From Rhizodiscina lignyota (taxonomy: Eukaryota), in contig ML978124.1 in NCBI GenBank assembly GCA_010015805.1, forward strand, positions 744,001-808,000: a stretch of 64,000 bases of DNA, written 5' to 3'. This document shows positions 963 through 4,388 of the stretch, piece by piece. The notes below the pieces were generated by a model. It saw only the letters and a program-made list of their open reading frames with translations, did not search any database and had not been told where the DNA came from. A program made the position numbers and the translations under genes. Each line of letters opens with the position of its first letter. Within the stretch, counting starts at the first letter, position 1.

Positions 963-1996
963 CTATTGCCACACATGTCCACAAGAAGTGCAGACAAAAT
1001 AGAGTTTCTGACGCAGTGTTACTGTCGCAGATCCCAAAAGTCGTAAAAGTAAGGAAACAAACCATTCCTGTCTCTGCTGTTCGCTGCTGAGACTGGAAAA
1101 AGACGGCATCGTGCTCCTGGCAGGAAGGACATCGAATGTTTTGTCGGGGAAGCTGTGCAAACACGATTAGTCAGCTCTGAGCTTCACAATGAAGGGAAAC
1201 TCAGCGCTGAAAGCGTGGAATTTGAAAGAGCCAAAGCAAGTGTTGTGTTGTCCGTGACTCAAGCCGTAGGCTTGTCGTTGGGCTGATCGGTAGATTCGGC
1301 TTCGACCATCTCCTCTTCCTCGTCACAGTCGTCATAGTTGTCATCTTCACCGTAGTCCAAGTGGGCATCTTCACCGTAGTCCAAGTGGGCATATCCAAGG
1401 GTGCTGGCAACGTAGTCATCCGTCGTCTGCGCCTCGCCCATCTCAATGTCCTCGTCCTCGACTTCCAAGAAGCAGCCATAGTCGGTAGGCGCCTCTCCAC
1501 ACTTCTCGCAGAAGATCAATTCGCCGCACATTGTGCAGACGTCCGGAACACGCGACGGGGGAGAAGGAGAGCGGGCGAGCTCGGAGGAGGTGGCGGCAGA
1601 TTCGGCCATGGGCGACGCGGCAGGGTCCAGAAGCTCAAGCTGGGAAAGATGCGAAGAGGTTTCATGAACGGGTATACCAACCGTTGGGTCTTGTCCAATG
1701 TCCTGAGTGATGCCGGCAGTCGCTCCAACAGCGTTGGACATTTGGTTGCGGTAAACACAAGAGCTAGGAGCCACTTCGTCCCAGCGACAGGTGCGGCATT
1801 CGAATCGAAGCTCGTTGGTGTCACGGTTCTCCTTTGGATAGAGCAAGTTGGAACTGCGAGAGAAGTAACTATCTTTGACACGCGACTGTTTAGTTAGTTA
1901 AGAGTCAAGTGCAACCTACCATTCGCGACAGAAGCGGAACGTGATCTTCTTTGGCTGTTCCACAGCAGCGTCGGAGGGCGCTGGCGACGCAGACAT
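963..1996 (-). CDS. RPB9: RNA polymerase II subunit Rpb9 (4 exons: 1996-1920, 1853-1682, 1152-1063, 1007-963)
   Basis: Spliced product ITFRFCRECSNLLYPKE...CRTC...QDIGQDPT|LPRQNIRCPSCQEHDAVFFQSQQRTAETGM|KLYFVCTSCGHVWQ has both Rpb9 zinc ribbons. Confidence 0.95.
1342..1392. repeat. Perfect 24-bp tandem duplication inside RPB9 intron 2
   Basis: catcttcaccgtagtccaagtggg occurs twice; it reads AHLDYGED x2 in the intron-retained frame. Confidence 0.9.
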
Positions 1997-2193: not shown

Positions 2194-2435
2194 GGCGCTA
2201 GTGGTGTTGTTTGTTGATTGGCTCGCTTCACCCGGTGAAAGAGGTTGGAGCTCACCTCCAACCGTCATAAGGCCCCATCACGCGTGCGCTCGCTCGTTCA
2301 CCAAGCAACCGTCACTGTAATTCACTTGGCCACTGCCGCGTCGTCACCACTCTTCCTCGCTGGCAGACAGTATCTCTGCCAGCAACACCCTCTCTTCGCT
2401 CAAAGTCAAGTTCTCCGGAGAGTTGCACGAGCGCC

Positions 2436-3226
2436 ATGGTTCGTATTCAGCTTCACCGTGCAACCGCTGTGTTTTGCTAATAATCTATTTCTATTGGGAA
2501 CAGTCTGTTGCAGAGTCTGGCCTCCCTCCAGGCTGGGAAGTGCGCCACTCGAACTCGAAGAACCTTCCTTATTACTTCCACCCCGACAGCAAAGAATCGC
2601 GTTGGGAGCCTCCAGATGGCTCTGATCCGGACAAGCTCAAGATCTACATGGCCAACTACCACAGCTCATCGGGTATCAACCGTGCTCCTGTAGATGGTCG
2701 CGAGGGCAAGATCCGTTGCGCGCATCTTCTCGTCAAGCACCGCGAGAGCCGCCGACCAGCAAGCTGGAGAGAGGCGAAAATCACACGCCAGAAGCAGGAG
2801 GCTATGAGCATCATTCTTGGTCATGAACAACGTATTAGGAGTGGAGAGACGAGCCTTGGTGATCTTGCTGTGTCAGAAAGCGACTGCAGCAGTGCGAGGA
2901 AACGTGGAGATCTGTACGTGCAGCGAGCGACTACCGTCTGAGAGAATATGTCGAGACCAATGGACAGAAGTAGCTGACGAGCAATGTTTCTACAGGGGCT
3001 TCTTCGGCAAAGGCGACATGCAGAAGGAATTCGAGGATGCAGCATTCGCGTTGCAGCCTGGAGAAGTGAGCCATGTCGTCGAGACAGCTTCTGGCCTGCA
3101 TTTGATTGAGAGGTATGTGCAGTTGCACAAGTCCGTTCGCCCTGCACGACGCAGCTCAGCAACGCCTCCAGCTTCTACGCAGTCTGAGCAGACACCAACT
3201 AACTATGCGTATATAGGCTCGAGTGA
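2436..3226 (+). CDS. ESS1: Parvulin-type peptidyl-prolyl isomerase Ess1/Pin1 (WW + PPIase; exons 2436-2438, 2504-2913, 2996-3112, 3217-3226)
   Basis: WW domain [20 protein letters not shown]...SRWEPP; rotamase motifs [56 protein letters not shown]. Confidence 0.95.
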
Positions 3227-4388
3227 GGCCACAAAGCATCTTCCTTCAATACCGAAAACGAATGAAGCTTCACTTTAGCCCACGCTTGTTGCAGAAGGAT
3301 CCTGAGCATATGAAAGGACATCGACTAAAAAACCGGTGGCAGTGACGTTGTAGATGATGAGAAAATGAAGGTTCATACGAATGCAATTCGTTCCGGTATT
3401 TAGCTCCGTATTGGCATCTCATACGATTGCATACTGCAGCAGATACAAGCTTTCTCAATCTCTAGCTGAACTAATGGCAGACGAGGTGGAGCGAGCGCGA
3501 CATGGCTAACTCGTGTGTTCATTGCACCAAAATTGGATCTTCAAGTAGCCGTGGATATTGTAAATTTTGACCACCGCGGCAACAACTGTGTGTCATCACA
3601 TCAGAGCAACATCTCCCAGGCAAGTCGCTCAAGATCAAATTTCCAGTTTATAAACTTGGCTGTGGCGAGCTCGACCGGACTTGAATCTCTTCGTCATTGA
3701 TGGACTTTTGTTGAGGTGCTCATCGTGTTTGCTTTTTTCCGCCTGGGTTCGTCCCCGAACCCAGCCCCCTTTTAGAAGTGCAAGCCCGACTTACTCGATT
3801 TGCTTTACCAAATTCCGCGCTTAGGTGATTGCGTAATGCTCTTTCGCGTGTTGTTTTGCGGCAGGAGCGTATCTCAATCGTTGTCTACCTCCGGAATGCA
3901 CTCTCTGACGATCAGGGTCACGAGGCTCTTGTTTCCAAGCTCTACAGGACTTCCAGCCACCAAAAAGTCTTGCTTCAACTGATACCTTGAGCTTCTCCTC
4001 GTCTCCGATTTCACCTTCTCAGCCAAGTAACTCCCTCTGTTTGTCGGCTCCCGCATTTATTTACAGCCGGCATATTCCGTTCCAATCGAGCAGTTCACTT
4101 CTCAAATGCATCCATTCTAGAATCCCATAAACTACTGGAATTCTGTCTCCTTCGTGTCTGAATTGGCTTTTTCTTTCTCCTGCTACCCCTGCGGCTTGTT
4201 CTGCTTTGGTATCGTCTCCACTTCCTCTCTGTATTCAGAGAATATGCACCAGGATTCTTTTGCTCTCTAATTAGATCCGAAGAGTCCTCGCTCCTGATAG
4301 CTGATGCTGGACTTTTACGGACTTTTGCTGAGCAGGCCACTCTAAGACGGGCTCATCGCTATTCGTTCTCTCTTTGCATCTCTGCGAA

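Follow-up and report, generated by a model that had tools for sequence, protein, structure and literature searches.

Rpb9 is a core subunit of RNA polymerase II (Pol II); it consists of two zinc ribbons with separable roles. In yeast, the functions assigned to the second, TFIIS-type ribbon (Zn2) are start-site choice, the response to TFIIS and fidelity. A polymerase can be diversified through this subunit: plant polymerases have alternative ninth subunits (NRPB9a/b, NRPD9/NRPE9), which are encoded by paralogous genes and contain both ribbons. An intron can also be a source of a second protein, as in PTC7 of S. cerevisiae, where it is kept in frame without stops, is conserved between species, and the spliced and unspliced mRNAs give two proteins. 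Here we consider the RPB9 gene of Rhizodiscina lignyota, a Dothideomycete of the order Aulographales. The gene lies on the minus strand at positions 963-1996 of a stretch of 64,000 nucleotides (nt) (assembly GCA_010015805.1, contig ML978124.1, positions 744,001 to 808,000), which is called the window below. Its second intron probably serves a dual purpose: when retained, it would encode a conserved alternative C-terminus of Rpb9.

The likeness to the plant subunits consists in the diversification of a polymerase via an Rpb9-type subunit, whereas here one gene would give two C-termini through a choice of splicing. The difference from PTC7 concerns the fate of the downstream exons: there the intron adds an internal segment and these exons are still read, while here the intron has its own stop and a whole domain would be replaced. 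With canonical Rpb9 (POLR2I) the locus shares the gene itself, exons 1-2 and the phase-0 intron after DPT, and the downstream exons 3-4 are intact in this gene as well as in a related locus (L001, described below); in contrast, the alternative product would wholly lack Zn2 and end in a module without a match in Pfam, PDB, Atlas or a fold search. The same N-terminal architecture as in the proposed isoform is found in engineered truncations of yeast Rpb9 that consist of the first ribbon (Zn1) and the linker. According to PMC9638876, Zn1 and the linker alone restore ATG1 transcription and autophagy, Zn2 being dispensable for that role; an Rpb9 without Zn2 can thus be functional. Those truncations are 52-residue laboratory constructs (PMC9638876), whereas the form considered here would be natural and would additionally have a conserved zinc knuckle and an acidic tail.

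Canonical splicing of the four exons (Table 1) gives, from the sequence and its translation, an Rpb9 of 127 residues. Its spliced N-terminus is identical to that of a public model of 223 residues (P0002), and the ending encoded by exon 4 is that of a canonical 126-residue model (P0094). Taken alone, exon 2 scores 23.9 bits (E 4e-5) against the Pfam family Zn_ribbon_RPB9 (PF02150), just below the cut-off of 25.2, because the first CxxC straddles the junction of exons 1 and 2; PF02150 is precomputed on the identical 223-residue model, and the N-terminal zinc ribbon of the Rpb9 / RNA polymerase M-15 kDa family is present. Exon 3 matches Zn_ribbon_TFIIS (PF01096) with 33.5 bits (E 3.7e-8, cut-off 21), and the canonically spliced product accordingly has the C-terminal ribbon. 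The read-through isoform is without the PF01096 ribbon by construction and is therefore the N-terminal half of an Rpb9 rather than a full member of the family.

Intron 2 is about ten times as long as the neighbouring introns. A preliminary description of this DNA had stated that it is 529 nt long, starts right after QDPT and has no stop in frame with RPB9 over 140 codons, up to a TGA at 1259-1261; that it encodes a Ser/Pro linker, a CxxC-x5-CxxC motif and a very acidic tail; and that it contains a 24-bp duplication preserving the frame. The sequence agrees with each of these statements. The frame past the donor is open from 1681 to 1262, and an in-frame coding run of this kind is likewise present in three related loci (L001-L003). 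The duplication is real and tandem (1341-1364 and 1365-1388), and the acidic tail seems, on this sequence, to have grown by in-frame tandem duplication. Besides the two near-identical copies there is a third, weaker one at 1317-1340 (67-71% identity).

Such a long open run is not expected by chance. We measured the run from the donor in 20,000 first-order Markov sequences for each of three models; runs of at least 140 codons occurred with a frequency of 0.0037 under the composition of the intron itself, 0.0039 under that of the window and 0.0012 under that of introns 1 and 3, and the median random run was 14-18 codons. The open part of intron 2 has an exon-like composition and frame-0 codon usage. 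Its GC content is 58%; introns 1 and 3 have 42-44%, and the final 109 nt of intron 2 have 47%. Many of its codons begin with G (65 of 140), and the GC content at position 3 is 66%. With codon-usage log-odds trained on 19 long open reading frames (ORFs) elsewhere in the window, the 140-codon tail scores +0.25 bits per codon in frame 0 and -0.09 and -0.72 in the other frames, compared with +0.14 for exon 2. By segment, the distal acidic part is the best (+0.42 in frame 0), and the spacer is equivocal. An origin of intron 2 from a repeat or transposon was considered and rejected, as blastn and tblastn of the intron and the tail against the 64-kb window returned only the self-match.

The 140 residues of the tail were searched by HMMER against 1.84 billion representatives (E<=1e-3). 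There were 19 matches, 16 of which are linked to Rpb9: the model of the window itself and 15 others, all with the same core. The in-frame run from exon 2 (...TQD..DPT) into the tail is visible in 14 of the 16, i.e., in the window model and 13 others; the remaining two (P0005 and P0007) have their first Met within the tail itself and so say nothing about the frame link. If the frame were random (p=1/3), at least 14 of 16 would be obtained with a probability of 1.2e-5, which is a rough figure considering that the sequences are related. The three other matches (P0009, P0018 and P0019) are long, with 5-11 short matching stretches each, and have no knuckle according to the motif regular expression; we took them as low-complexity matches. 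In the alignment of the 16 sequences (A1), C135, G136, I139, C141, C144 and E156 are invariant, and C132, T133, E138, G145, L155 and V157 are conserved in at least 90%.

A profile built from the tail sequences (E<=1e-5) gave 86 matches, and in 73 of them a complete CxxC-x5-CxxC follows the DPT end of the exon. One more (P0073) is an ORF ending within the motif, and 11 are of the canonical Rpb9 type, in which the junction is followed by LPR or LAR or the PF01096 ribbon is present. Among the 73, the spacer between DPT and the first Cys has 35 distinct lengths of 6-59 residues, always in frame. The frame remains open for 8-111 codons past the core (median 46; the random median given above is 14-18), and the zone past the core consists of 26% Asp+Glu and 5% Lys+Arg. 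In the larger alignment of 76 rows (A4), the invariance of the four Cys is partly by construction, the rows having been picked by the motif regular expression. The preliminary description had mentioned, without verification, DPTVG...CxxC tails in predicted Rpb9 proteins of other filamentous ascomycetes, and this is correct.

The residues that follow DPT (n=72) are VG in 56 cases, VR in 8, VC in 3, VS in 2, AS in 2 and DN in 1, and they mirror the donor hexamer. The consensus 5' donor is of the GTRAGT type. Since VG prevails after DPT, most carriers would have a GTNGGN donor instead of this consensus.

The named carriers include Rhizodiscina, Trichodelitschia, Coniosporium, Verruconis, Lophium and Microthyrium, as well as five Pleosporales (Clohesyomyces, Lojkania, Lophiotrema, Westerdykella and Polyplosphaeria). 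The module is also carried by a metagenome-assembled genome (MAG) of Chrysothrix (Arthoniomycetes) and, in a more divergent form, by the Hypocreales Fusarium albosuccineum and Drechmeria coniospora. The divergence in Hypocreales suggests, at the sequence level, an old module that has since diverged. In the read-through proteins of the Hypocreales type (P0084, P0087 and P0097, those of the two named species among them) the spacing of the four Cys and the acidic tail are kept, and the L-E-V-x-D stretch that comes after the knuckle in Dothideomycetes is absent. One match (P0065) is filed under the plant Carpinus fangiana; this Rpb9 is of the fungal type, has the knuckle tail and starts with an oddly long N-terminus, and it is possibly fungal DNA within a plant assembly.

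The arrangement could be followed in genomic DNA as well. A scan of metagenome DNA yielded three loci with the RPB9 tail, L001, L002 and L003. In L001, which lies on a 128-kb contig, intron 1 is followed by exon 2 ending in DPT (phase 0), the donor GTTGGT, an in-frame run of 68 codons that includes the knuckle, a TAA, 115 nt with a CTAAC branch-like site, and intact exons 3 and 4; intron 2 is 322 nt long. L002 and L003 are close relatives of each other and have the same arrangement as far as the contig ends, with the donor GTGGGT, so that the donor is GTKGGT in all four DNA copies, the window included. As judged from these copies, at least two distant taxa have the module within the canonical intron of an RPB9 that is complete in other respects, and it is no truncated paralogue. 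The remainder of intron 2 past the tail stop is similar in length in the window (106 nt, 1153-1258) and in L001 (115 nt, 3163-3277), although the coding parts differ two-fold (140 and 68 codons). L001 also has the same neighbouring genes as the window, a WW/rotamase gene of the Ess1 type upstream and a gene for a mitochondrial-type ribosomal protein L14 downstream (the two lie at 1649-2380 and 3693-4201 of L001, in an order not implied by this listing, both on the minus strand); this conserved neighbourhood argues against a recent horizontally spread element.

Two further sets of candidates were discarded. L004, from a scan of prokaryote genomes (a Dehalococcoidia MAG), is a chance match of 14 residues. 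Three ORFs from outside NCBI with exons 1 and 2 joined (P0052, P0056 and P0058) were considered as processed transcripts retaining intron 2; we dropped this argument, because P0056 is on a 12-kb contig and these species may simply lack intron 1.

Selection was estimated mainly between the window and L001. In the 33 aligned codons of the core dN/dS (the ratio of nonsynonymous to synonymous substitution rates) is 0.17, and it is 0.14 in exon 2. The identity at codon positions 1/2/3 is 0.79/0.82/0.52 in the core and 0.72/0.75/0.40 in exon 2. Codons for Cys and Gly of the core differ synonymously (TGC/TGT, GGC/GGA), and the cores of L002 and L003 differ by 3 synonymous and 0 nonsynonymous substitutions. 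By these substitution patterns, the 33-codon core is shown to evolve like a real exon, under purifying selection at the protein level. The preliminary description had proposed a comparison of RPB9 across Pezizomycotina, and the outcome is in its favour: the frame is open past the donor of exon 2, CxxC-x5-CxxC is kept, and the dN/dS of the core is well below 1. The comparative part of its interpretation is supported to this extent. We conclude from the alignments and loci together that a predicted coding frame, tied in frame to exon 2 and conserved in many Pezizomycotina, is shown to coexist with intact exons 3-4.

Table 1. Features of the RPB9 locus in the window and of the reading frame within its intron 2
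Feature	Position	Strand	Description
RPB9 exon 1	1996-1920	-	ATG 1996-1994; carries the N-terminal ribbon's first CxxC as far as a split Cys codon
RPB9 intron 1	1919-1854	-	66 nt, GTAGGT...CAG, 42% GC
RPB9 exon 2	1853-1682	-	Remainder of the Zn1 ribbon and linker; ends ...QDPT, phase 0
RPB9 intron 2 (canonical splice)	1681-1153	-	529 nt; donor GTTGGT 1681-1676; CTGAC branch-like site 1174-1170; AG 1154-1153
Tail residues 1-44	1681-1550	-	Val-Gly read from the donor, followed by a spacer rich in Ser/Pro/Ala
Conserved core, tail residues 45-78	1549-1448	-	Four-Cys knuckle CxxC-x5-CxxC, then a stretch of the G-C-F-L-E-V-E-D type
Knuckle Cys codons	1537-1535, 1528-1526, 1510-1508, 1501-1499	-	
Distal acidic tail, residues 79-140	1447-1262	-	Predicted disordered; holds the 24-nt tandem duplication 1341-1388
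Read-through TGA	1261-1259	-	The 3' splice site follows after 106 nt, the exon 3/exon 4 junction after 196 nt
RPB9 exon 3	1152-1063	-	Beginning of the C-terminal ribbon of the TFIIS type (LPR...CxxC...)
RPB9 intron 3	1062-1008	-	55 nt
RPB9 exon 4	1007-963	-	Second CxxC of the C-terminal ribbon; TAG stop 965-963

For the tail, no Pfam family reached E<=1, and there was no meaningful match among PDB sequences and no match in Atlas; a fold search likewise gave none. The CxxC-x5-CxxC region in particular shows no significant profile match to the known zinc-ribbon and zinc-knuckle families of Pfam. Short double-CxxC knuckles or ribbons such as Pfam zinc_ribbon_2 are similar in having two close CxxC(G) pairs with a hydrophobic residue before the second; the difference is that here the pairs are only 5 residues apart. 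In the AlphaFold2 (AF2) model of the tail alone (with the alignment), the predicted local distance difference test (pLDDT) score is 73-85 in the knuckle region and at most 63 in the rest of the tail. In the full-length model it is 93-95 in the Zn1 ribbon, 76-81 in the knuckle and mostly at most 60 in the remainder. In the modelled read-through protein, the Zn1 ribbon would accordingly be folded and the linker flexible, and a tiny Cys4 knuckle would be followed by an acidic tail that is disordered. The knuckle probably binds one zinc. By these searches the module is a putative small Cys4 domain, previously unclassified and found in this context only.

We presume the following mechanism. Removal of intron 2 would give the ordinary 127-residue Rpb9 with the Zn1 ribbon, the linker and the TFIIS-type Zn2 ribbon. 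If intron 2 stays in the mRNA, or the mRNA ends inside it, translation would pass the donor, GTTGGT being read as Val-Gly, and the product would have 223 residues: Zn1 and the linker, then the variable spacer, the four-Cys knuckle and the acidic disordered tail instead of Zn2. The non-consensus donor (GTKGGT) could let some transcripts escape splicing. The product would then be made and placed in Pol II as a ninth subunit without Zn2 and with altered properties; it should still dock on Pol II, because Zn1 and the linker, which hold Rpb9 on the polymerase, are predicted to be kept. Start-site choice, the TFIIS response and fidelity are the candidate properties, and our preferred guess is that the knuckle and the acidic tail would alter factor binding or those properties of Pol II that are linked to Zn2.

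It is tempting to go further and to propose that filamentous ascomycetes make two forms of Pol II from one RPB9, the choice of splicing at a deliberately weak donor swapping Zn2 for the knuckle and acidic tail, so that a subpopulation of polymerase would differ in start-site, pausing, fidelity or bound factors; such a system would be as old as the ancestor shared by Dothideomycetes and Sordariomycetes, or older. We advance this wider proposal tentatively and consider it rather doubtful at present.

Several points weigh against an alternative C-terminus encoded by the retained intron. Demonstrable constraint, as seen in the alignments, covers only about 34 codons; dN/dS is about 1 in the spacer and the distal tail, where the alignment is poor and dS is saturated in most pairs. 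The production of the isoform is deduced from the sequence, the only public run that contains this DNA being genomic; its reads form a single contig of 107 kb identical to the window, and the run may be where this DNA comes from. Ab initio prediction, with its preference for long open frames over a 529-nt intron, may lie behind the public tail models. An mRNA that retains the intron and is otherwise spliced could be a target of nonsense-mediated decay (NMD), because its stop precedes the exon 3/4 junction by 196 nt; a transcript ending within the intron might escape this. The AF2 model is only moderately confident and has no regular secondary structure. One of the 86 profile matches (P0086) is a read-through ORF without the knuckle. 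No named match from Eurotiomycetes or Leotiomycetes appeared in the profile search, which given the search mode is not proof of absence. Finally, protein databases reveal only species in which the frame is open, and the counts of carriers do not give the share of Pezizomycotina without it.

Among the other explanations, the one that stands best is regulated unproductive splicing, in which retention of intron 2 would mainly serve to lower the output of Rpb9 (autoregulation coupled to NMD) and the peptide would be a by-product or a dominant-negative poison form. The non-consensus donor (GTTGGT or GTGGGT), the premature read-through stop 196 nt ahead of a later exon junction and the unusual length of intron 2 are all compatible with it. 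Regulation at the RNA level would, however, conserve nucleotides rather than residues; here position 3 is nearly free (identity 0.36-0.52) and positions 1 and 2 are kept, the four Cys are maintained through synonymous TGC/TGT changes, and the frame past the core is open far beyond the random expectation (the median of 46 codons given above). A poison form that still needs zinc or partner binding would be a variant of the explanation that we prefer. Unproductive splicing is plausible as an additional role; alone it does not explain constraint at the peptide level, and as the whole explanation we regard it as unlikely.

The knuckle could also be an internal cassette: it would belong to a longer exon 2, a donor past the core would be joined to exon 3, and Zn1, the knuckle and Zn2 would be combined in one protein. 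The distal tail evolves fast, as non-coding DNA might, which fits this possibility. Against it, none of the 73 knuckle-bearing matches contains an LPR..CxxC C-ribbon together with the knuckle, and no protein of 392-2000 residues matched residues 118-170, i.e., neither a longer fused form nor another context was found in this search. L001 has no GT-initial codon between the core and the stop, hence no phase-0 donor fitting exon 3, and the only phase-0 GT codons of the window are poor donors. The distal tail moreover has the best codon-usage score of the segments tested, and its acidic composition is consistent in relatives. We consider the cassette very improbable.

The chances are smaller again that the intron contains an independent nested gene, from whose own start a small zinc-knuckle protein would be made. 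The ORFs of P0005 and P0007 do start at a Met within the tail, but many relatives have just 6-10 residues, without a Met, between DPT and the first Cys; the Met within the knuckle comes after the first Cys; and 14 of the 16 matches linked to Rpb9 run on in frame from exon 2. Last, a chance open frame or a decaying relic spread as an annotation artefact is strongly disfavoured, for even though ab initio predictors favour long ORFs, the probability of such a frame is about 0.004 in this species alone, the motif recurs in 73 of the 86 profile matches from at least three classes, and the core has the low dN/dS reported above.

In the public databases the read-through product already exists: it is 100% identical to the 223-residue 'hypothetical protein NA57DRAFT_54537 [Rhizodiscina lignyota]'. 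This model uses the read-through frame and omits exons 3-4 with the TFIIS-type ribbon. According to PMC7082219, the Dothideomycetes genome set was annotated with the JGI (Joint Genome Institute) pipeline. A canonical Rpb9 of Rhizodiscina lignyota is absent among the 86 profile matches, where Glonium stellatum and Aulographum hederae are represented by canonical models. At least 13 named fungal records, and the one filed under a plant name, have in public no other Rpb9 model than the tail form, which is without the TFIIS-type ribbon; comparative studies would consequently score those species as lacking a complete Rpb9. Our literature search found no account of an alternative or retained-intron isoform of Rpb9, or of a coding RPB9 intron, subscription journals and supplements being outside its coverage. 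The tail-bearing gene models are public yet, as far as this search goes, unremarked, and the new part would be a coding retained intron that gives an alternative domain, on a core polymerase subunit and with an unclassified Cys4 module.

If this is true, a natural, conserved isoform that keeps the anchoring half of Rpb9 and replaces the regulatory one would amount to a built-in diversification of Pol II in a very large group of fungi, to which many plant pathogens, lichens and species used in industry belong.

Two minor observations concern the surroundings of the intron. The gene order Ess1-type WW/rotamase - RPB9 - mitochondrial-type ribosomal protein L14 is represented in the window by neighbours at 89-616 and 2321-3278, both on the plus strand. 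Opposite exon 2 and the tail there is an antisense open frame of 223 codons (1226-1897, plus strand) with a translation rich in Val, Leu and Phe; it looks like a mirror of the acidic sense codons and is not gene-like.

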